Part shown: positions 1,761 to 59,098 of the stretch, one piece after another
Layout of the letters: each line of letters starts with the position of its first letter
Position numbering within the stretch: the stretch's first letter is position 1
Source: a virus
DNA length: 64,000 bases
IMG/VR virus record: IMGVR_UViG_3300009431_000004
Strand: one strand, 5' to 3'
Position numbers and translations under genes: made by a program
Notes under the pieces: model-generated
What the model saw: only the letters and a program-made list of their open reading frames with translations
Databases searched by the model: none
Told to the model about the DNA's origin: nothing

Positions 1761-1979
1761 CTACTCGGGAACCTCGTCGAACTCGCTGTACCAGTAGGGG
1801 GCCAAGGTGTCGTCGTCGTGACGAATCCACCACTGCCCCCGCATCTGCATCTCCTTCTCGACCGTACCGAGAGCCTCCCGGCGGTTGTGCAACAGGTCGG
1901 GCCGGGCGAGAATTCTGTGCCTCTGCCGCAGGTCACGGGTCTGCACCCGCAGCCCCGGCATAATCTCGGTGATGTTCAA
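1761..1979 (-). CDS. hypothetical protein
   Basis: TTG start after GGAGAAAGGGG, overlapping the upstream stop. Confidence 0.55.
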   Translation of the reverse strand: MNITEIMPGLRVQTRDLRQRHRILARPDLLHNRREALGTVEKEMQMRGQWWIRHDDDTLAPYWYSEFDEVPE

Positions 1980-2209
1980 AGCAGCCCCTTTCTCCATGCC
2001 GACCGGCTGGCGTAGACGCCTGTGGGAGCAGCAATCAGGCCACCGACGACGAGAACGAAAGGCGGTCCCCATCCGTCTCGTCCGAGCCAGTAGCTCCCGA
2101 GGGTGAGCCAAAGCAGCCCGCCAATCAGGAGCGCCCAACGCCCGAGGGTGCAATCGAACTCGTCAGGGGTCAGGCTCAGGTAGAGCCGCAGTTTGAGGTT
2201 GGTCAGCAT
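1976..2209 (-). CDS. small membrane protein
   Basis: Two hydrophobic segments; start MLTNLK. Confidence 0.55.
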   Translation of the reverse strand: MLTNLKLRLYLSLTPDEFDCTLGRWALLIGGLLWLTLGSYWLGRDGWGPPFVLVVGGLIAAPTGVYASRSAWRKGLL

Positions 2210-2217
2210 GTCGCTCC

Positions 2218-2622
2218 CTAGCGGAAGTGGTAGCCCCTTGCGGTCTTCGAGTCGAGCCACGGAGCCAGCGCCGGGTTGTCCTCCGGGTACGCATTGGAGA
2301 GGGTGGGGTGCCAGTCGGGGTTGTCCCGAATGTAGGCAGGGGCCACCCACACGGCGTTGTGATTCCCGGCGATGGCCTCCTCGCAGCGGGGGTCCAAGGC
2401 AGGGACTTCAATCCAGCTCGTCTCGGCGGTCGAGCAGCCGACCACTTCCTCGGTGCCGGAGTCGTACATGACGTTGGGCATGTCCGCGTGCAAGGTCATC
2501 AGCCCCGCAATCACAAAGACGGCCAGAGCCACCCCGAAGATGCCGACCACCCAACGGGTCACGGTCCGCATCCGGGTATGGAGTCGCTTGCCGGGTCCGG
2601 GAAGTGTGTCTTTCAGACTCAT
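2218..2622 (-). CDS. membrane-anchored hypothetical protein
   Basis: Single TM segment; GGAGG RBS; class-I motif upstream. Confidence 0.7.
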   Translation of the reverse strand: MSLKDTLPGPGKRLHTRMRTVTRWVVGIFGVALAVFVIAGLMTLHADMPNVMYDSGTEEVVGCSTAETSWIEVPALDPRCEEAIAGNHNAVWVAPAYIRDNPDWHPTLSNAYPEDNPALAPWLDSKTARGYHFR

Positions 2623-7090: not shown

Positions 7091-7118
7091 GGGGCTTAGA
7101 ACACCTCCTTCCGAGTAG
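7091..7118 (+). promoter_or_regulatory. class-I promoter-like motif
   Basis: GGGGCTTAG-N13-GAGTAG; its TAG is also an ORF stop. Confidence 0.8.
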
Positions 7119-8099: not shown

Positions 8100-8531
8100 T
8101 CACGGCGTTCCTTCAAGTGGGTTCGGGAGGGCCACTACAGAAAGCCAGTAGTGGTGCAGTTCCTTCAGCACTTCCTTCATGGCCTCGAAGGTGACGGGCT
8201 TGAGGACATACGAGTTGGCCCCCTTCGAGTAGGCCGAGAATATGTCGGCCTCGGTCCGGGAGGTCGTCATTATCACCACGGGGATGTGGCGGAGCCGCTT
8301 CGAGGCGCGGATGGCTTGCAGGGCTTCGCTCCCATCCATCCGGGGCATCTTGAGGTCCAACATGACAAGGGAGGGCGTGGGTTTCGTGTCGTCTTCGAGA
8401 CGCGCCAGTAGCTCCTCCCCGTCCTCGACCCGTTCCACGGAACACTGGTCTTCACACTCCTTGAGGGTGTCTTCGACTAGAATCCAGTCCTCGTTGTCGT
8501 CTTCTGCAAAAATCAACAGGGGTACGGCCAT
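8100..8531 (-). CDS. single-domain response regulator (Rcp1/CheY-like)
   Basis: AEDD, MLDLKMPRMDG, MTTS, GANSYVLKP. Confidence 0.93.
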   Translation of the reverse strand: MAVPLLIFAEDDNEDWILVEDTLKECEDQCSVERVEDGEELLARLEDDTKPTPSLVMLDLKMPRMDGSEALQAIRASKRLRHIPVVIMTTSRTEADIFSAYSKGANSYVLKPVTFEAMKEVLKELHHYWLSVVALPNPLEGTP

Positions 8532-10187
8532 CTAGTTCTCCGCAGGTCGCAATGGGATTGTCACAGTGAAGGTCGCCCCTTTTCCGGGTTCCCCCTTAGC
8601 AGAAATATAACCTCCGTAGTGGGAAATAATCCTGCGGCACAGCGCCAGCCCGATTCCGGTCCCCGGATAGGCAAACCGAGTATGCAACCTCGTGAAAACA
8701 CTGAATATTTTGTCCGCGAACTTCTGGTCGAACCCGATGCCGTTGTCTGCCACGGTCACGAATGCAAGGTCCTCCTCGACAGTGCCGTCGATGCGGACGA
8801 CGGGAAGGACATCGGGTTTCCTGAATTTGATGGCGTTCGAGAGAAGATTCTGGAACAGGATGCGGAACTGCGCCGAATGACCCCGGACCGTTGGGAGGTC
8901 CCCAACGATGACCTCGGCCTTGGCCTCGTCGAGGACCAGCTCCAAGTCGGTCAGCACTTCGGCCACGACGACGTTGAGGTCCACGTCCATGAAGGGGACC
9001 TGTTCCCCGCCGCCCGCCTTGGAGTAGCTCAGGAGGTCGTCGATGAGCTTGGTCATCCGCGTGGACGCGCTCTGCATAACTTCGAGGCACTCTTGCACTT
9101 TGGGTTCGGCCTCCTCGCGCAGCAGTCCTGCTAGTCTGTTGCCGAAATTGGTGATTTTGTTCAGAGGCTCCCGCAAATCATGGGAGGCCGCGTAGGCAAA
9201 GGACTGAAGTGCCTCGTTCGATACTTCGAGCTGGTGGGTTCGATTCAGGACCATGCCTTCGAGACGGGACATGACTTCCTTGGCCCGCGTGATGTCCCGG
9301 ATGACCACCAGAACCTCATCCGGGCCGGACGGGCTGAACCGGGCCTCGAAGGTGTACCCCGGCACCTTCGGGAGACGGTACTCCCATTCTTGGATGATCC
9401 CCGTGTCCAGAGCCTTCCCGATGCACTTCATCGCGTTGGCTGCGAACTCCGGCGGGAAGACCTCTTGGACGTTCTTCCCGAGGTACTGGGATGGCCGCAT
9501 GGCCACCGGCACAGCGCCGGGGTGACTGTCGATGAACACCCCCTCGCGGCAGATGAGATGCAGCATGTCCGGGGTCGCCTCCAAGAAGGCTCGGTAGCGA
9601 CCTTCAAGGGTCTGGGTCTGTTTCTCGTGCGTGTCGTGGAGAAAGTCCTCCATACGGTGTCGCTGGATGGAGGCCCCAAAGAGTCCGCTCAGGAGGTGGA
9701 CAATCCACAGGTCCGCATCGGAGTAATCTTTCGGCTTGTTAGCCACTGCGAGTTGGCCCACCAGCTCGTCCCCGATGAGTGCAGGTGCGCCAAGGAAGTT
9801 GGTGAGTTGGATGTGGCCCTCTGGGGCACCCTTCGAGGCCGGGTGGGAAGCCGGGTCATTCGTGAAGAAGGCCAGCTTGGTTGTCATGGCATGGCCCCAC
9901 AACTTCGGGTAGGTGCCGTCGGGAAGAGGCGGGAACACGATGCGCTCCTCCTCGGGCTGAAGTTGGCACTCCTTTCCCATCATGTCCGTCAAGGAGTAGC
10001 AGACGAGTTCCTTCGTCACGGGGTCCACGGCACCAGCGAAGGCATGGAGGCTCCCGGTCAACTGCCGGGCGCAGTCGGTGGCAGTCCTCGACAGGGATTC
10101 GAGGGAGACGTTGTTCTTGATGAGTTCCTTGGCCACCTCTGCGACGGCAGAGAGGACCTCGACCGGGTTGTCTAGCCTGTGGAGCAT
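8532..10187 (-). CDS. soluble GAF-PAS sensor histidine kinase
   Basis: H-box ASHDLREPL, N-box QNLLSNAIKF, DNGIGF, GTGIGL; GAF (LWGH...PEGH...GQLAVAN) and PAS domains. Confidence 0.95.
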   Translation of the reverse strand: MLHRLDNPVEVLSAVAEVAKELIKNNVSLESLSRTATDCARQLTGSLHAFAGAVDPVTKELVCYSLTDMMGKECQLQPEEERIVFPPLPDGTYPKLWGHAMTTKLAFFTNDPASHPASKGAPEGHIQLTNFLGAPALIGDELVGQLAVANKPKDYSDADLWIVHLLSGLFGASIQRHRMEDFLHDTHEKQTQTLEGRYRAFLEATPDMLHLICREGVFIDSHPGAVPVAMRPSQYLGKNVQEVFPPEFAANAMKCIGKALDTGIIQEWEYRLPKVPGYTFEARFSPSGPDEVLVVIRDITRAKEVMSRLEGMVLNRTHQLEVSNEALQSFAYAASHDLREPLNKITNFGNRLAGLLREEAEPKVQECLEVMQSASTRMTKLIDDLLSYSKAGGGEQVPFMDVDLNVVVAEVLTDLELVLDEAKAEVIVGDLPTVRGHSAQFRILFQNLLSNAIKFRKPDVLPVVRIDGTVEEDLAFVTVADNGIGFDQKFADKIFSVFTRLHTRFAYPGTGIGLALCRRIISHYGGYISAKGEPGKGATFTVTIPLRPAEN

Positions 10188-10969
10188 GACGGTTCTATTC
10201 CCCCACCCCCCAGCCTCAGCAGGGTCGTGGCCTTCAGGGCTTCAACCGTTGCCGGGTCGAGGGAGTTGATGAGGATGACCGCAAGGACCGCAATCGTTAC
10301 CAGACAGAGGAAGATGACAATGGCCACAATCGGATTCGATTTTATCCAGTCGAGCAACCACCTGAATCGAGAAATGTCACGGACTTCGGAGAGGACGGCA
10401 TCCCGCATCGACCTGATGTCTGCCCGTATCGCCGCGCTCTGCTCGGTGCTGGCCGCCCGCGATGCCTTCAGCTCCTCGGTCGCGTGTGTCTGGGCGATGA
10501 CCGACTCTCTCGTGAGGCTCACCAGAGTCTCGATGTTCACGCCGACGCCCGGCCCGCTGCCGTTACGGGTCTGCTTCTCGTACAGCCCGATGGCGTAGAT
10601 GCAGGTGCGTTCCAGAATCTCGGTGTTGAAGGTGCCTTTTTCGAGGTACTCGGCAGCCCCAGCTTCGATGGCGCGGGCTTGCAGGCTACGGTCCCCGTGG
10701 CTCGTGATGATGACCACTGGAATCTTGAAATACAGCTCCTCGTAGATGCGTTTCAGGAAGGACAGGCCGTCGAGGTCAGGGAGCTTGTAGTCCAGCAGGA
10801 CTACATCGAACTTGGACTCTTCCAGCTTCGTCAGACCGGCGTCCGCTGTCTCCGCCTTCTCGACCGCGAACTTCGCCCGTTTGCCTTCCCCGAGCAGGTC
10901 GGAGACGAGCTTGGCATCCTCCCGGTCATCGTCGATGATGAGGACACGGACGCTGGTTGCAGGAGGCAT
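10172..10969 (-). CDS. response regulator receiver fused to coiled coil and C-terminal TM helix
   Basis: IIDDD, LLDYKLPDLDG, YLEK; hydrophobic tail IVAIVIFLCLVTIAVLAVILI. Confidence 0.88.
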   Translation of the reverse strand: MPPATSVRVLIIDDDREDAKLVSDLLGEGKRAKFAVEKAETADAGLTKLEESKFDVVLLDYKLPDLDGLSFLKRIYEELYFKIPVVIITSHGDRSLQARAIEAGAAEYLEKGTFNTEILERTCIYAIGLYEKQTRNGSGPGVGVNIETLVSLTRESVIAQTHATEELKASRAASTEQSAAIRADIRSMRDAVLSEVRDISRFRWLLDWIKSNPIVAIVIFLCLVTIAVLAVILINSLDPATVEALKATTLLRLGGGGIEPSCSTG

Positions 10970-10978
10970 TGGACCTCC

Positions 10979-12025
10979 TTAGTGGCAGAGCGAGAGCTGC
11001 TTCTCGATGTACGTGAACAGGGTGTTGAGTTCCTTCAGGAGCGCCTTGCCCTCGGGGTCCGGCAGGAAGCGGGGCTTCCCCTGCACCCGGCGGAGCGGCC
11101 TGCTCATGAGCTTCATGAGCTTCTGACCCATGGTGCTGTCCTCGCTGGTCAAGGCGCGGATGAGCCGGACGCCACGGTCGAGGGCGGCCTCGATGGTATC
11201 GGACTTGCCCTCACGGGTGATTTCCATGCGGGCCTTGGCGACTTCTTCTTGGAGTTGGCGCAGGCTCGGGGAGCAGTAGGCCGTGGACTGACTTCCCCAG
11301 CCGAAGCCCACCTGCCGGGCGAGGCCCACCGGGTACTCGCCCATCTTGAGCTTCTTGCCGTCGGGAGTCTTGTGGTTCGGCCCGAAGGCGTCCACGTAGC
11401 CACGGGAGATGCGCTTGGCGTAGTGCTGGGCCAGCTCCCTCTTGGCCCCGTTCAGGGTCGGGAACCAGAACCTCGGGTCCGAGTCGAACTTGGCCCCGTC
11501 GATGCGCCCGGTCTTGCCCGAATCGGTCAGAGCGCCCCAGCGCCGGACGACCCGGTGGCCGCCATCGTCGTCCTTGATGACGCCTTCGTAGAACTTGGAG
11601 TGCTTGGCGTCCGGGTCCACGTTGTAGACCATGAAGCCTTCGCCCGCCCGGACACGGCTCTTGTTCAGGCCGTCCTTCTCCATGATGGGCTTGTGGGCCA
11701 TCTTCTGAAGGAGGGCCTGCTTCTCGAAGCAGGTGAGGGAAGCCCACCGATGCCTCGACATCTTGTCCCCGTAGAAGTGGCACGCGACACGGACCGCCTC
11801 GGCGGCTTCCCGCCTCATCTCGGCAGCCTGCCGCATGAGGGGGACGAGGTGCTTCCGCGTCTCAGGATGCTGGGCCGCGCACTTCTCCATCTCCGCGAGA
11901 AGCCCCTCGTCGCGCATGTCCGACATCTCGTCGAACTGCCGTTGGTCGAAGTGTTCTCCGAGTTCGTCTGTTTCCAAGAGAACTTCCGGGGGCTTGCGTT
12001 CTCCGAGGTCGCACGTCGGGTCCAT
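10979..12025 (-). CDS. WGR-domain protein
   Basis: NVDPDAKHSKFYE...VVRRWGA...KRISRGY; start moved to MDPTCD. Confidence 0.7.
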   Translation of the reverse strand: MDPTCDLGERKPPEVLLETDELGEHFDQRQFDEMSDMRDEGLLAEMEKCAAQHPETRKHLVPLMRQAAEMRREAAEAVRVACHFYGDKMSRHRWASLTCFEKQALLQKMAHKPIMEKDGLNKSRVRAGEGFMVYNVDPDAKHSKFYEGVIKDDDGGHRVVRRWGALTDSGKTGRIDGAKFDSDPRFWFPTLNGAKRELAQHYAKRISRGYVDAFGPNHKTPDGKKLKMGEYPVGLARQVGFGWGSQSTAYCSPSLRQLQEEVAKARMEITREGKSDTIEAALDRGVRLIRALTSEDSTMGQKLMKLMSRPLRRVQGKPRFLPDPEGKALLKELNTLFTYIEKQLSLCH

Positions 12026-12088
12026 GATGTCTACTCCCTGCAAGGCCAAAAGGCATGAAGCCACGCTCTCATCTATAGGGAGTATTTA

Positions 12089-12643
12089 CTAGCTACCGAG
12101 AAACTCCTCGTCGGAGAGCAACCCATCGAGAAGGTCGTCGATGGCGTCGGGGGCTTCGGGGTTGTCCGCAGTGGTCATTTCGGCAGGGGTCATGTCGGTG
12201 AGGTCGTCGAGGTCGTCGTCGGCACCCGTCTTGTCCTTCGCGGGGGGTGCCCCAAGCGTGGGGGTAACGCCCGGAAGCTCGGGTTCGCCGCAGACTTGGA
12301 GGAACCCGGCTGCCAGTCCGAGGAGCTGTGCCTTGGCCTCGACGAGGGCTTCTCTCAGGCCATCGAGGCCCTTCCCCTTGTGCTGCCACAGAACCGTTGT
12401 AGAGCCATCGACGACCTCCCGTACCCCGCGAATCTCCACGTTGATGTCCCCGGCGTTCTTGCGTTGGGAGCCAATCCCGGCTTTCCTGCGATGCAGCTTC
12501 GTGTAGACCTCGATTTCCAACTGGATGAGTCCGATGTCGATGTGGTCCACGTAGCCCGTGTCCCAATGCTTCCGGTGGGAGGTTGTCCCCGGCAGAATCT
12601 CGGTGAGGAGGGCATCAAACTCTGCTGGTGTCGGGGTGTCCAC
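12089..12643 (-). CDS. hypothetical protein with acidic tail
   Basis: AGGAG RBS; Asp-rich C-terminus. Confidence 0.7.
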   Translation of the reverse strand: MDTPTPAEFDALLTEILPGTTSHRKHWDTGYVDHIDIGLIQLEIEVYTKLHRRKAGIGSQRKNAGDINVEIRGVREVVDGSTTVLWQHKGKGLDGLREALVEAKAQLLGLAAGFLQVCGEPELPGVTPTLGAPPAKDKTGADDDLDDLTDMTPAEMTTADNPEAPDAIDDLLDGLLSDEEFLGS

Positions 12644-12682
12644 GCTCCTACTACTCTATTTCGGGCGAAGGTGGGGCGGGGG

Positions 12683-13441
12683 CTACGAGGCGGCGTCCAG
12701 TACGCCGATGATGCTGTCGTTCACGATGAAGCCCTGCTGGCAGGCTTCGACGGCGGCGGTTCCACCGGCACGGAGGATGAAGTCGGTGCCGGGTTCCAGC
12801 CGGTAGCTGACGTAGCGGCTCGTGGGCAGGTTGCGGGTCAGCGCCTTCTTGGCCAGCGTCTTGGGCTTGCTGTTGGCCTTGGGAGCCGGGCCGTTCGGCG
12901 CGGGTTCCAGCACCTTCGAGAAGATGCGGAGTCCCTGCACGTAGATGGTGCCGGGCTTGGGGGCGCGGGCTTCGTCGCTGCAATCCCGGCAGCGGCAGTT
13001 GGCCTTGCCGGAGCAGCGGTACACGCGACCGCCTCGGACCGTCTCACCGTTCACGACCAGCGGCTCGAACACACCCGCCGTGGTGGACTTGGACTCGGTG
13101 TCCGGGTTCAAGGTGTCCTCGAAGCTGGCGACCTGCTCGGCCAGTGCGGTCCGCACGTCCGCTTCGGTGAACTCGCCGTTGCCGTCCGCGACCAGCTTCG
13201 CCACGTCCGCATCCGTCAGCGCCTTGAGGGCTGCCAGCGAACGCTCGACCAGCTTCTCGTAGCGGAAGCCGGTGAAGATGACGGTGTGAATCCGGTCGTT
13301 GCCGTAAACGACCTTGTTGCCCTTGGGGCCGCGCTCCACACCGCGCTTCGTGGTGATGAGTCCGGTGAAGGTTCCCACGCGGGCATCCTTCAGGAGCATG
13401 GCCAGCATGTCCGAGCTGGCATTGGTCTTGACGTTTCCCAT
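12683..13441 (-). CDS. hypothetical protein (paralogue of 16213..17028)
   Basis: Shared blocks GVxRGP, LVERS, EPLVV, GTIY, PAPNG. Confidence 0.8.
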   Translation of the reverse strand: MGNVKTNASSDMLAMLLKDARVGTFTGLITTKRGVERGPKGNKVVYGNDRIHTVIFTGFRYEKLVERSLAALKALTDADVAKLVADGNGEFTEADVRTALAEQVASFEDTLNPDTESKSTTAGVFEPLVVNGETVRGGRVYRCSGKANCRCRDCSDEARAPKPGTIYVQGLRIFSKVLEPAPNGPAPKANSKPKTLAKKALTRNLPTSRYVSYRLEPGTDFILRAGGTAAVEACQQGFIVNDSIIGVLDAAS

Positions 13442-13485
13442 CTTCGTTCTCCTTTTCAAATGCGGGTCTGTCCCGCTCATGTACC

Positions 13486-13513
13486 CAACTCGCATCTTTC
13501 GGTTCTAAGCCCC
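13486..13513 (-). promoter_or_regulatory. class-I promoter-like motif
   Basis: GGGGCTTAG-N13-GAGTTG. Confidence 0.8.
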
Positions 13514-13554
13514 CTCCGTGCGAAAATATTTTCCGCCCTTTTATTAAGGTAAAG

Positions 13555-13582
13555 GGGGCTTAGGACCGCGACGAGCGAGTAG
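13555..13582 (+). promoter_or_regulatory. class-I promoter-like motif
   Basis: GGGGCTTAG-N13-GAGTAG, divergent pair with AT-rich spacer. Confidence 0.8.
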
Positions 13583-13630
13583 TCAATGTGTGGACGGGGC
13601 AGACGGCCCCATTGACAGGAGGATGAGACG

Positions 13631-14425
13631 ATGGCCAAGGTAACGAAGATGACGCGCCCGGTGGCCAAACGCATCGCGGCGGACGTGGCGGCAGCCCTCA
13701 AGCCCGTGGCCGAGAAGTACGGCATGTCCTTGTCGGAAGGCGGGTGGAGCTACTATGACACGGACATCACTTTCAAGCCGAAGTTCGCGGTCGTGACCGA
13801 CTCCGGCGTCCCGGCGGACTTCGAGAGGCTGGCCCCCAAGTACGGGCTGGAACCGAGCGACTTCGGCAAGACCTTCACCAGCCTCGGTCGCCAGTTCCGC
13901 ATCACGGGCATCAAGCCCACGAGGCGGCAGTACCCCATCAGCGGGGAGAGGGTGCCGGACGGCAAGAGCTACAAGTTCACGGCACAGCAGGTCGTGACCG
14001 GCCTCGGCAAGACCAGCAAGGCCAAGTTCTCCAAGGGCGACCGCGTGACCTTCAAGGACTTGTTCGCTGGCAAGACCGGCGCGAAGTCCCACGGGACCAT
14101 CGAGAATGCACTGCCGGTCGGAACGGACCAGCGCGTGGAGGTCTTCACCGGGGGCCAAGTCCTGACCCTCAAGCAGGACGAGCTGACCCTCTTCAAGGGT
14201 AAGAGGACCGAAGACGACATCATGGCGGACATCTGCTGCGCCTACGGCGGCCTGTCCCCCGAGAACCTCACCTGCGATGGCGAACTGCCCCGGTCGCGGG
14301 TCCGCGCCAAGGCCAGCCGCCTGAACCGCTGGCTCAACGAACTGCAAAGGGAGTTGGGCCGCTCCGTGAGCGAGGAAGAGTCCTTCGACTGGTGGGACAA
14401 GCAGCGCAAGGCCAAGGCCAGCTAG
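13631..14425 (+). CDS. multi-module phage hypothetical protein
   Basis: AGGAGG RBS; C-terminal LSPENLTCDGEL module. Confidence 0.8.
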   Translation: MAKVTKMTRPVAKRIAADVAAALKPVAEKYGMSLSEGGWSYYDTDITFKPKFAVVTDSGVPADFERLAPKYGLEPSDFGKTFTSLGRQFRITGIKPTRRQYPISGERVPDGKSYKFTAQQVVTGLGKTSKAKFSKGDRVTFKDLFAGKTGAKSHGTIENALPVGTDQRVEVFTGGQVLTLKQDELTLFKGKRTEDDIMADICCAYGGLSPENLTCDGELPRSRVRAKASRLNRWLNELQRELGRSVSEEESFDWWDKQRKAKAS

Positions 14426-15066
14426 TGGTGGGCAACTCGACCATCGCAAGCGGCGCTCTCTGGATGACCATCGGTTGCGGGGTGGGCCTCTCGCTCACCA
14501 TCATCGAACAGGTCGTGGCCCGGATTCGCGGCCCGGAGTGGGTGACGTGGCTGCATGAGGACGCGGTGGACGGCCAGTTCGCCACCGTCAAGGACTACCT
14601 CGCTGTCGCAGCCTTCTGGCCTCTGTTCCTCGGCATGGCCGTCTTCGCAGCCTTTCACAGGCAGACCCTATTCGAGAGGATGGCACACAAAGACCCGGCG
14701 CGGCAGGACGGCCTCCGGCGTCTCGGGGACATCGCTCAAGGGAGGCTCCCGTACAAACGAGAGTGGCGGGACATCCCCTCGGAGGACGGTCAGATTTACC
14801 TGTACGTGGCCTATTACCGCAACGGAGAGGACCCGATTCGTGTGACCCACACCATCACCCGGCCTCCGGGCGGGATGTTCATGTGCTGGCGCTATATCGG
14901 GTCCGACGAGAGGTCCATCCCGCTGTCGGCGGTGGATTCCCTTGGAGACGCGAAGACGGCATGTGAAGGGGACGAGCAGTGGCTCCCACTATGTGACCCC
15001 GGACGTGAGGGTCAGCAGGACGCCTTCTTCAAGGCCCAACAGGCCAAGCTCGACGAGGGTGACTAA
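14425..15066 (+). CDS. membrane-associated hypothetical protein
   Basis: Two N-terminal TM segments; start uncertain. Confidence 0.6.
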   Translation: MVGNSTIASGALWMTIGCGVGLSLTIIEQVVARIRGPEWVTWLHEDAVDGQFATVKDYLAVAAFWPLFLGMAVFAAFHRQTLFERMAHKDPARQDGLRRLGDIAQGRLPYKREWRDIPSEDGQIYLYVAYYRNGEDPIRVTHTITRPPGGMFMCWRYIGSDERSIPLSAVDSLGDAKTACEGDEQWLPLCDPGREGQQDAFFKAQQAKLDEGD

Positions 15067-15428
15067 ACTTCGTCGCGTCGCCAGACGCACTCGAACGGAG
15101 CGCCGTACCCGCACGCCGCCTCGACCAGAGATTCTGTGACCCGCATGACGGACTTCCTCGGCAAGGAATCCGGGGGGAGCTGGGCAATCATCAAAGCCGT
15201 GTCGAGGGGAGGGCCGGGGTCGTAGTCCATCTGGATGATGACCTCGGGTTTCGTCCAGTCCAGCATCCGGGCGTAGACGGCGTTCCTGAACTTGATGGCG
15301 GCGGAGAGCGGGGTGTCCTCCGGCAGCCGGTCCATCCACCAGTTGGCGGCGAAGATGCAGGCTGTGATATTCAACGTATCTCCGACATCATGGCATCCCT
15401 CTCCCGCTTTACCCGCTCCAAGTCCCAC
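15063..15428 (-). CDS. hypothetical protein
   Basis: ORF track; start uncertain. Confidence 0.55.
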   Translation of the reverse strand: MGLGAGKAGEGCHDVGDTLNITACIFAANWWMDRLPEDTPLSAAIKFRNAVYARMLDWTKPEVIIQMDYDPGPPLDTALMIAQLPPDSLPRKSVMRVTESLVEAACGYGAPFECVWRRDEV

Positions 15429-16212: not shown

Positions 16213-17028
16213 TCACGGCGCAATCTTGAACAGGGACCGGATGGCCTCGGGGTCCACGGGGACACCCTCTGCCTTGGCATGGTCGCTGGCGTCGGACCCG
16301 ACCTTGATGGACAGGAGTCCCTCCTTCTCCAACGAGTACCGGGCGTAGAGGCCGACAGGCAGCCACGACCGCAGGATGTTCTTGACGACCGTCTTGGGCT
16401 TGTGCTTGGCCTTCCAGTCACCGTTCGGCGCGGGTTGCAGAACCTTCTCGCCCAGCTTCACGCCGTCGATGTAGATGGTCCCGGTGAGAGGTGCGCGGGG
16501 GTCCATCAGGTTCCCTGCGCCCACGTAGACCTTGGCCCCGTTGACCGTGGTCCCGTCCACCACGAGAGGCTCCCATACGGGGGCCTTCTCCCGGTCCGCC
16601 TCGGTCTGGTCCCGGTCGGCAGAGGGGTCGCCGTCATCGACGAGCTGGTCGGCCCGGATGACCTTCATGAAGTTGTCGTCGAGTTCCTGCACGGCCACGG
16701 CGATGTCCGTCATGCTGACCCCGGTATGACCGGCAGCCACACAGGCGTCGTGGAGCCTCTTGAACAGGTCGCCCTTGCCCCACATCTGGTGGAGCTTCTT
16801 GAAGCTCCGCTCGACGAGTGCCTGATAGTAGAACCCCGTCCAGAGGAGGACGTGAACGAAGTCGTCACCGTAGATGGTCTTGTTGTCCGCCGGGCCACGG
16901 GCGACCCCCTTCTTGCGGACGACGATGGAGGCGACGGTTCCTTCACCGATGTCATCCCCCATGCCGTCCATGATGGCGGCTGCGAGGTGCTTGTCGGTTG
17001 CGTTTACAGTCGGTGCTGAGGCTCCCAT
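16213..17028 (-). CDS. hypothetical protein (paralogue of 12683..13441)
   Basis: AAGGAG RBS; shared sequence blocks. Confidence 0.8.
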   Translation of the reverse strand: MGASAPTVNATDKHLAAAIMDGMGDDIGEGTVASIVVRKKGVARGPADNKTIYGDDFVHVLLWTGFYYQALVERSFKKLHQMWGKGDLFKRLHDACVAAGHTGVSMTDIAVAVQELDDNFMKVIRADQLVDDGDPSADRDQTEADREKAPVWEPLVVDGTTVNGAKVYVGAGNLMDPRAPLTGTIYIDGVKLGEKVLQPAPNGDWKAKHKPKTVVKNILRSWLPVGLYARYSLEKEGLLSIKVGSDASDHAKAEGVPVDPEAIRSLFKIAP

Positions 17029-20940: not shown

Positions 20941-20968
20941 CTACTCGGAGAAGACGGCTCTAAGCCCC
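20941..20968 (-). promoter_or_regulatory. class-I promoter-like motif
   Basis: GGGGCTTAG-N13-GAGTAG. Confidence 0.8.
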
Positions 20969-23302: not shown

Positions 23303-23330
23303 CTACTCGGTGGAGGCGGCTCTAAGCCCC
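23303..23330 (-). promoter_or_regulatory. class-I promoter-like motif
   Basis: GGGGCTTAG-N13-GAGTAG. Confidence 0.8.
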
Positions 23331-25656: not shown

Positions 25657-25684
25657 CTACTCTTTCAGAGGGGGTCTAAGCCCC
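25657..25684 (-). promoter_or_regulatory. class-I promoter-like motif
   Basis: GGGGCTTAG-N13-GAGTAG. Confidence 0.8.
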
Positions 25685-56595: not shown

Positions 56596-56623
56596 CAACT
56601 CGCCAGTTTCGGCTCTAAGCCCC
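56596..56623 (-). promoter_or_regulatory. class-I promoter-like motif
   Basis: GGGGCTTAG-N13-GAGTTG. Confidence 0.8.
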
Positions 56624-56654: not shown

Positions 56655-56682
56655 GGGGCTTAGAGTCGCGTGACGCGAGTGG
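56655..56682 (+). promoter_or_regulatory. class-I promoter-like motif
   Basis: GGGGCTTAG-N13-GAGTGG, divergent pair with T-rich spacer. Confidence 0.8.
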
Positions 56683-58453: not shown

Positions 58454-59098
58454 ATGGAAGCAAATGCCAAAATCGTCGTCTCCCCGGCAATGGACCAAGT
58501 GATAATGGGGTCCATCTTGGGAGACGGGCATCTTGAAAGACCTCCTCCCGGAAGCCTGAATTGGGGATTGGGTATTAAGCACGGCCTGAAACAAGAACCT
58601 TATGCCCTGCACAAAGCCAACCTACTCGGCCCCCTAGTTTCAAAAGTAGACCACCCAACGGAACGGGTACGAGTCAGAACAGTGAGGCACCCGCACCTCA
58701 CAGAATGGGCTTCTCTGGCAGTCCCGGCCAAGAAGAAAATCGTCCCGCCGGAACTGATTTCCCAAGTCGGACCTTTGGCTCTCGCTATCTGGTACATGGA
58801 TGATGGGTCATTTCTGACTAAATTGAACAAAGATGGCACCGTCTACAAGCTCATCCGAATCGCGTCCTTCTCATTCACCCCGAAAGAAAACAAAGCCTTG
58901 ATAACCATGCTACAAGAGCGTTTTGAGATTGAGGCACATATCTGGAAACAGCCCAACAAGCGAAAACCGAAATCCCCTTACAAAGGGATTTGGATGTCAA
59001 AAGGTGAAGCCGAGAAGTTCCTGTCCATCACACACCCCTATCTTGAACCAACCTGCATGGCCCACAAATGGGGGCTTAGAGAGCTTTCTACAGAGTAG
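58454..59098 (+). CDS. LAGLIDADG homing endonuclease (two-motif, LAGLIDADG_2 type)
   Basis: IMGSILGDGHL and LAIWYMDDG. Confidence 0.9.
   Translation: MEANAKIVVSPAMDQVIMGSILGDGHLERPPPGSLNWGLGIKHGLKQEPYALHKANLLGPLVSKVDHPTERVRVRTVRHPHLTEWASLAVPAKKKIVPPELISQVGPLALAIWYMDDGSFLTKLNKDGTVYKLIRIASFSFTPKENKALITMLQERFEIEAHIWKQPNKRKPKSPYKGIWMSKGEAEKFLSITHPYLEPTCMAHKWGLRELSTE
59071..59098 (+). promoter_or_regulatory. class-I promoter-like motif embedded in the endonuclease 3' end
   Basis: GGGGCTTAG-N13-GAGTAG; the TAG is the LAGLIDADG stop codon. Confidence 0.8.

Follow-up and report, generated by a model that had tools for sequence, protein, structure and literature searches.

A conserved, virus-specific two-component operon of huge phages with a membrane-anchored response regulator that may gate lysis

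Holin timing is the textbook example of a protein clock, and the known modulators of holins are separate antiholins that sense superinfection. The slot immediately upstream of an endolysin gene normally encodes holins or holin partners. One protein of such a cassette, XhlA from the lysis cassette of Bacillus PBSX, has a coiled coil at its N-terminus and a transmembrane (TM) helix at its C-terminus. The class III holin T of phage T4 has a single TM helix, with its N-terminus in the cytoplasm and its C-terminus in the periplasm (PMC11413866, PMC9671378), and in the holin gp11 of mycobacteriophage D29 a cytoplasmic coiled coil matters for oligomerisation and lysis timing (PMC9671378). The LytSR sensor kinase pathway governs the holin/antiholin-like proteins LrgAB and CidAB (PMC5717393). 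In a survey of jumbo phages receivers appear solely as a divergent form that stands apart from kinase signalling (PMC7824862), and our full-text literature searches returned no paper tying a phage kinase or receiver to a holin, and none on the receiver-tail family described below. Here we analyse a four-gene operon in a stretch of 64,000 nucleotides (the window, whose positions are used throughout unless a locus is named) from the IMG/VR virus record IMGVR_UViG_3300009431_000004, in which a phage sensor kinase is encoded beside a receiver that carries a membrane tail.

The operon is a conserved, virus-specific two-component system with a new kind of response-regulator output. Its second gene encodes a receiver (REC) joined through a long helix to a TM tail, a protein that we call REC-TM. 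The reading that we favour, with a probability of about 0.45, is that the phage kinase would phosphorylate this receiver, the membrane part being of a holin family, and would thereby gate lysis. Such a reading gains support because the tail also occurs as a free protein, encoded directly upstream of an endolysin in two phage lineages. The components of the module are as follows, all on the minus strand.

10979..12025, minus strand: gene of the WGR protein (the longest open reading frame extends to 12064, 361 residues); from the open reading frame list and orthologue starts
11381-11647 (approximate), minus strand: WGR domain, between N-terminal helices and a C-terminal four-helix bundle
10172..10969, minus strand: gene of REC-TM, the membrane-anchored response regulator (receiver, tail, TM helix), 265 residues; open reading frame, Pfam and AlphaFold2
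10589..10957, minus strand: receiver domain of REC-TM (Pfam), with the phospho-acceptor Asp60 at 10790-10792
10337..10564, minus strand: Gly-rich linker, conserved LTRESV.AQ motif and long cytoplasmic helix (residues 146-211) of REC-TM; alignment and AlphaFold2
10538-10564, minus strand: the linker NGSGPGVGV itself
10175..10333, minus strand: TM helix at the C-terminus (residues 213-236, 10262-10333), then about 29 residues with a predicted periplasmic location
8532..10187, minus strand: gene of the sensor histidine kinase, 551 residues; open reading frame and Pfam
9666-10106 (GAF), 9279-9584 (PAS), 9009-9209 (HisKA) and 8547-8873 (HATPase), minus strand: domains of the kinase by Pfam
9966-9968 (Cys74), 9813-9815 (His125) and 9180-9182 (His336), minus strand: key residues of the kinase
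8100..8531, minus strand: gene of the single-domain receiver, 143 residues, with Asp59 at 8355-8357; open reading frame and Pfam

The four open reading frames run in the same direction and are tightly packed in 8100-12064. The WGR and REC-TM genes are separated by 9 bp, the REC-TM and kinase genes overlap by 16 bp, and there is no gap between the kinase and the small receiver. A first-pass annotation, made by a model from the letters alone, had described four tightly coupled genes for a WGR protein, a receiver with a TM tail, a GAF-PAS kinase and a single receiver, and the open reading frame map and Pfam agree with it. It ended the WGR gene at 12025, which the orthologues bear out; because they begin at Met14, the start is probably this residue, at 12025. 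The codon style, said to match the flanking phage genes, does so, with a GC content at third codon positions of 0.77-0.88 in the four genes, inside the range of their flanks. The phospho-accepting residues that it took to be intact are all in place (H336 of the kinase, D60 of REC-TM and D59 of the small receiver). Its statement that neither receiver has a DNA-binding or enzymatic output domain also holds, Pfam finding only Response_reg in each and neither LytTR nor another DNA-binding domain.

In REC-TM the receiver is a clear one (Response_reg 3.4e-22, residues 9-120 of 265), with D13-D15, D60, T89 and K111 all present. Residues 213-236 form the only strong hydrophobic segment among the four module proteins (Kyte-Doolittle score 3.4). 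An AlphaFold2 model built on a 28-sequence alignment (mean predicted local distance difference test 84.6) places the receiver at 1-135, followed by a disordered linker at 136-145, a single helix at 146-211, the TM helix at 213-236 and a short helix at 239-253. The junction between receiver and tail is specific to the family, reading LERTC.YAIGL ... NGSGPGVGV ... L..LTRESV.AQT in the alignment. Beyond it the helix varies in length and leads through an invariant Trp, in F/K-RW.LDWI..NP, to the TM segment, after which comes the short motif D..K.K.LKDA. About 28 full-length relatives share 39-63% identity, with matches that span the tail. When a tail-only profile was run against 1.84 billion representative proteins it drew about 50 clusters, nearly all of 230-290 residues and with the tail in the C-terminal half.

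To what family does the tail belong? The first-pass annotation had likened its coiled coil and C-terminal TM helix to XhlA and holin-like proteins. The architecture is indeed alike, and a coiled coil or helix followed by a C-terminal TM helix is present both in the REC-TM tail and in its stand-alone homologues, although the lysis-cassette position is not found in this window. The family match was not borne out, which weighs against the lysis reading. A Pfam scan of the window's tail gave no family at E<=1, and so no XhlA. Over 28 tails, XhlA was outside the 25 most-matched of 59 Pfam families, and the stand-alone tail P0138 gave no XhlA match at E<=0.1. A PHROG scan of the tails found no lysis or holin family at a meaningful E-value, the sole match labelled holin having an E-value of 0.21, and look-ups in protein atlases gave no usable match.

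The evidence for a lysis module comes from the free tails. Three of these, P0138 (120 residues), P0140 and P0143, match the tail profile with E-values of 1e-14 to 1e-17, and align with it from LTRESV.AQ, across the TM helix, as far as the periplasmic motif (hhalign probability 99.2%, E 6e-20, 107 columns). Three diverged members of the P0138 lineage, which includes an IMG/VR virus contig, keep a fixed order of genes: a 61-residue protein, a 59-residue protein, the tail protein, an endolysin and a 356-residue protein. The endolysin has PG_binding_1 and Amidase_2 domains, matches PHROG endolysin families and, at the locus L099, lacks a hydrophobic segment. There the stop codon of the tail gene overlaps the endolysin start as TAATG, and the tail is the only protein beside the endolysin with a clear internal TM helix; the 61-residue protein, encoded two positions upstream, is hydrophobic and signal-like at its N-terminus. 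The conserved 356-residue gene past the endolysin (L099:9259-10329, plus strand) resembles a PHROG family of phage protein kinases, though weakly (E 3e-5). Another free tail, P0163, is more distant (hhalign probability 95%, E 3.7e-8) and comes from an unrelated, AT-rich virus contig, where it lies just after a tail-fibre-like gene and directly upstream of a DUF5675 protein; DUF5675 has been proposed as a C82-like candidate lysin (bioRxiv 10.64898/2026.04.11.717860). These profile alignments show the tail to be homologous to proteins of lysis cassettes. The setting typical of a holin, a small TM protein next to an endolysin, is thus found for free tails in two lineages of small phages. It is nearly found at L010, a relative of the module in which a PG_binding_1 and Amidase_2 endolysin lies directly upstream of the genes for the WGR protein, REC-TM, kinase and small receiver. 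REC-TM of the window differs from that setting in lying about 10 kb from the endolysin and in its extra receiver of 127 residues. Two other tail sequences contribute little here: P0147, considered as a free tail beside a kinase, has a frame that is open to the contig edge and is probably a truncated receiver-tail protein, and P0142 lies on a 1.5-kb contig without gene context.

In the kinase, Pfam finds GAF_2 (5.7e-16), PAS_4 (2.9e-6), HisKA (3.9e-14) and HATPase_c (6e-22), and the motifs are intact, with H336 in SHDLREP and the N, G1 and G2 boxes as NLLSNAIKF, DNGIGF and GTGIGL. An H-box His in HisKA, the HATPase_c boxes and a receiver with acidic pocket, Asp, Thr and Lys place the pair in the HisKA class. 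Neither the kinase, the small receiver nor the WGR protein has a strong hydrophobic segment, so that the kinase is predicted to be cytoplasmic. The first-pass annotation had seen possible haem or redox ligands in a Cys and the PEGH His of the GAF domain. Across 10 homologues Cys74 of this domain is invariant and His125, of the PEGH motif, nearly so; this conservation would fit a ligand site, and we take it no further than that. The input region differs among the relatives, being GAF and PAS, PAS only, several PAS domains or none, sometimes with a C-terminal receiver (L004, L005, L006, L009, L010 and P0165-P0203). The receiver-tail partner stays constant while the sensor region of orthologous kinases is swapped. 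Among named cellular proteins the kinase core is closest to those of Myxococcota (Hyalangium and Cystobacter; P0241, P0265 and P0270), with about 41% identity over PAS and kinase core, which may be a weak hint of the host.

The small receiver raises the question of whether the tail is the output at all. It matches Response_reg (3.5e-20, residues 9-122) as its sole domain in 143 residues, and is therefore a single-domain receiver, with D11/D12, D59, T89/T90 and K112. It is the best conserved of the four module proteins (46-65% identity) and always accompanies the kinase. The true output might then be this diffusible receiver, acting on the WGR protein as a nucleic-acid-binding partner or on host targets, with REC-TM as a phosphate sink or scaffold. 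The WGR gene lies directly upstream of REC-TM in six relatives, and for MolR-like factors of jumbo phages WGR is named as the domain that binds DNA (PMC7824862). The assignment of the domain itself is made up of several near matches: PF05406 scores 3.4e-4 and 21.1 bits, just below the cut-off of 22, the motif RRWG...TGR is invariant in seven orthologues, the orthologue in L002 is annotated as WGR, and a fold search returned the WGR of PARP1/2 first, at an E-value of 1.5e-3 and with low TM-scores. Yet L006/7 and the P0022, P0025 and P0013 contigs lack an adjacent WGR gene, so that this gene is not part of the core. L001 keeps REC-TM with neither kinase nor small receiver, which implies a function of the tail's own, and the tail is conserved over its full length, including the TM helix and periplasmic motif. 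We therefore consider an output through the small receiver to be improbable. At L010 the 3′ end of the small receiver gene is overlapped by a gene for a SWIM zinc-finger protein of 139 residues (L010:13039-13458, plus strand).

How general is the module? Single-sequence searches with REC-TM, the kinase and the WGR protein against GenBank phages and IMG/VR gave generic receiver and kinase-core matches or nothing, and a profile-based scan was needed to find the relatives. The synteny in related phages that the first-pass annotation had proposed to check was found: the order receiver-tail protein, kinase, receiver is kept in at least 10 related contigs. With the WGR gene in front it occurs in six relatives (L002/3, L004, L005, L008, L009 and L010), and without an adjacent WGR gene in L006/7 and in the contigs of P0022 (346 kb), P0025 (266 kb) and P0013 (126 kb); L001, where REC-TM stands alone, is a contig of 377 kb. 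Among the IMG/VR virus records with relatives of the module, one measures 436 kb (direct terminal repeats, CheckV 100%) and includes L005, another measures 402 kb (terminal repeats) and includes L006, and a third measures 381 kb. The window itself encodes a DNA polymerase, helicases, a DnaB-like helicase, primase, thymidine and thymidylate kinases, uracil-DNA glycosylase, ADP-ribosylglycohydrolase, HNH endonucleases and endonuclease VII, and the polymerase shares 50% identity with its counterpart in LR745208, an uncultured huge phage of 485 kb. We take the element to be a huge phage because of the terminal repeats and CheckV result in IMG/VR, the replication genes matched in PHROG and the likeness to the LR745208 polymerase. 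Pfam models of Terminase_6N, Phage_sheath_1 and GPW_gp25 had no match in five related virus records, which we read as divergence of the structural genes of huge phages and which decides nothing.

The operon might instead be a passenger, a two-component system of host origin that does nothing specific for the phage, or it might act as a decoy, draining the phosphorelays of the host. The kinase core has its Myxococcota relatives, and the receiver domains alone match many bacterial proteins. Cellular genomes were scanned with the pattern LERT[CL][ILV]YAI[GS] and a generic receiver pattern, using one genome per species from 185,579 prokaryote species, the best 80 of 169 matches being kept. Those retained matched the receiver domain only, with no receiver-tail fusion, and a hidden Markov model of the tail matched none of the 80 loci (the tail-only alignment is too variable for pattern scans), whereas it matched all of the phage and metagenome loci L001-L010. 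The first-pass annotation had named as damaging to its case a fusion common in bacterial chromosomes and absent from related phages; what was found is the opposite, the fusion being present in the relatives and in none of the retained cellular loci. The module proteins are 44-65% identical to their relatives and the neighbouring genes 40-58%, and since the module diverges about as much as its neighbours this points to vertical inheritance within the huge-phage lineage. The order of the genes has been kept across that divergence, the composition is like that of the flanks and the catalytic residues are retained. These comparisons support an operon that is phage-borne, with no recent acquisition from a host. 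A passenger or decoy is thus very unlikely, and nothing in the analysis supports the draining of host phosphorelays, which the first-pass annotation had raised.

The relationship between kinase and tail is illuminated by one subclade. P0024 and P0128 belong to the P0017 clade together with the kinase-less L001, and in both Asn replaces the phospho-accepting Asp, as expected if the kinase targets the REC-TM receiver and the tail can work without it. The constant order and close coupling of the genes point, indirectly, to phosphotransfer between them as well. In the lysis reading the soluble kinase would sense a cytoplasmic cue through its GAF/PAS input and phosphorylate Asp60 of the membrane-anchored receiver, altering the hold of the receiver on the flexible linker, conserved helix and TM tail. 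Because the linker is flexible, the receiver would dock on or release the conserved helix motif rather than twist a continuous helix. The tail, a holin-family or holin-partner module with its N-terminus inside and its C-terminus outside, would then be permitted to oligomerise in the inner membrane or be blocked from doing so, setting the time at which the endolysin reaches the wall. The small receiver would compete for phosphate, serving either as a sink or as another diffusible output, and the WGR protein would be a frequent but dispensable accessory. In its most specific form, REC-TM would be a phosphorylation-gated holin or antiholin, switched through its receiver by a cytoplasmic phage kinase that reads the state of the infected cell, so that lysis timing is a signalled decision, and the loss of kinase and phospho-accepting Asp in one subclade would be a return to unregulated function. 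We put forward this specific form tentatively, as less likely than not.

Several aspects of the genomic setting weigh against REC-TM as a simple holin. They concern the following features around the module.

13505..13513, minus strand: GGGGCTTAG motif upstream of a 270-residue gene, with a divergent partner copy at 13555-13563 (plus strand)
12683-13495, minus strand: gene of 270 residues, function unassigned, within the stretch 12089..13495 upstream of the WGR gene and co-directional with it
12089-12643, minus strand: gene of 184 residues, function unassigned, in the same stretch
2670-2678, 2900-2908, 2930-2938 and 7091-7099: further copies of the motif before the module
20960-20968, 23322-23330, 25676-25684, 56615-56623, 56655-56663 and 59071-59079: further copies after it
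L104:5258-6256, minus strand: endolysin of 332 residues with PG_binding_1, about 29-1027 bases before the start of the window (L104 is this genome)
1979-2209, minus strand: protein of 77 residues with two hydrophobic segments, about 2 kb from the endolysin
2221-2571, minus strand: protein of 117 residues with a TM helix at its N-terminus, likewise about 2 kb from the endolysin
L001:15285-15962 (minus strand), L002:14846-15610 (plus strand) and L006:15415-16203 (plus strand): PspA/IM30-like genes

The adjacency of free tails to endolysins is limited to two lineages, and in most of the huge-phage relatives the operon does not abut an endolysin. The distance is about 6-8 kb in L009, about 10 kb in this genome, about 17-19 kb in the complete 436-kb genome (G001) and about 30 kb in G003, and in G002 it would be about 52 kb if a weak match is counted as the endolysin. 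Other small membrane proteins of the window are nearer to the endolysin than is REC-TM, namely those encoded in 1979..2571; they have no PHROG match and are alternative candidates for holin or spanin. The endolysin is itself flanked by a GIY-YIG gene and large glycosyltransferases.

The operon also lies among genes of nucleotide metabolism, behind the same GGGGCTTAG motif as theirs. The window has 12 exact copies of this motif against about one expected by chance, and by the gene map most of them precede a gene start by some tens of bases, frequently in divergent pairs. Scans for sigma-70 promoters and for terminators, and a search for CTATAG-type motifs, added nothing to this picture. The motif is a candidate phage promoter or leader element at the head of the nucleotide-metabolism genes and of the module operon, whose transcription unit seems to begin at it and is possibly headed by the 270- and 184-residue genes. 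Since motif and neighbourhood are shared with nucleotide metabolism, the setting hints at expression before the late phase, which would suit a regulator or antiholin better than a lethal holin. The 270-residue gene has a paralogue of similar length at 16213-17028 (minus strand), likewise unassigned in function. Each cross-matches the other's stretches in relatives (33-36% identity) but also has an orthologue of its own (47-59%) in L002, L004, L005, L008 and L009; the gene at 12683-13495 possibly heads the operon that contains the module.

Could REC-TM then act at the membrane in some way other than lysis? It might recruit or regulate a PspA/ESCRT-III-like protein, take part in superinfection exclusion or place the kinase, the free tails being accessory membrane proteins and not holins. 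A PspA/IM30-like gene lies 0.6-5 kb from the module in L001, L002, L006/7 and the P0022 contig, and in L006 an 873-residue protein with a signal peptide, TM segment, coiled coil and Gly/Ser-rich end is encoded between the module and PspA (12696-15317). The lack of a holin-family match and the surrounding genes, which do not look late, would also be accommodated. Against this, no PspA homologue was found in the window, so that the link is not obligatory, and free tails lying exactly upstream of two kinds of endolysin would be left unexplained. On balance we regard a membrane role apart from lysis as less likely, though it is a serious rival and the foremost one. The membrane event such as lysis timing suggested by the first-pass annotation gains support from the free tails of two lineages and from the endolysin before the operon in L010; a family relationship to XhlA or a holin is not supported.

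If REC-TM does gate lysis, it would represent a new class of response-regulator output, acting directly as a membrane effector, and a new viral means of deciding when the host is killed. Lysis would be signalled across a clade of huge phages rather than run by a concentration clock. Phages of 400 kb have many unexplained genes; one conserved block of these would acquire a function, and the result would be a compact switch from ligand to lysis. Should the link to lysis fail, a conserved, virus-specific, tail-anchored response regulator with some other membrane function remains.

Comparison with the known systems shows what would be new. The T4 holin T, with its antiholins RI and RIII, resembles the tail in its single TM helix and in an orientation with N-terminus in and C-terminus out, which for the tail is our prediction. 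There is no sequence likeness between the two, and the proportions are reversed: in holin T the cytoplasmic part is small and the periplasmic domain large, while the tail has a large cytoplasmic helix, with or without receiver, and about 29 periplasmic residues. In T4, regulators acting on soluble parts of the holin determine when lysis occurs, and in the module the part under regulation would likewise be cytoplasmic; but T4 relies on separate antiholins that sense superinfection, where regulation here would pass through a fused phospho-receiver fed by a phage kinase. The free tails share with XhlA both layout and position in the lysis cassette, but REC-TM has no profile match to it, no XhlB-like partner is present here and a receiver is fused. 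The D29 holin gp11 differs in its two TM helices and in having the coiled coil at the C-terminus; it lacks a receiver and is not homologous to the tail. LytSR with LrgAB/CidAB is like the module in joining a kinase pathway to holin-like membrane proteins. However, LytR has a DNA-binding output and acts on transcription, while REC-TM has no such output and its receiver is fused to the membrane protein itself; LytS is a multi-pass membrane kinase of bacteria, and the kinase of the module is soluble and phage-encoded, so the module is not of the LytSR type. In signalling architecture the module is like class I HisKA systems that have single-domain receivers of the CheY, Spo0F, DivK and Rcp1 type and phosphate-sink branches, in which a GAF-PAS HisKA/HATPase kinase is likewise found beside a lone receiver, with two receivers for one kinase. 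The present module departs from them in being encoded by a virus, and in that one of its receivers is anchored to the membrane by a tail that also exists free.

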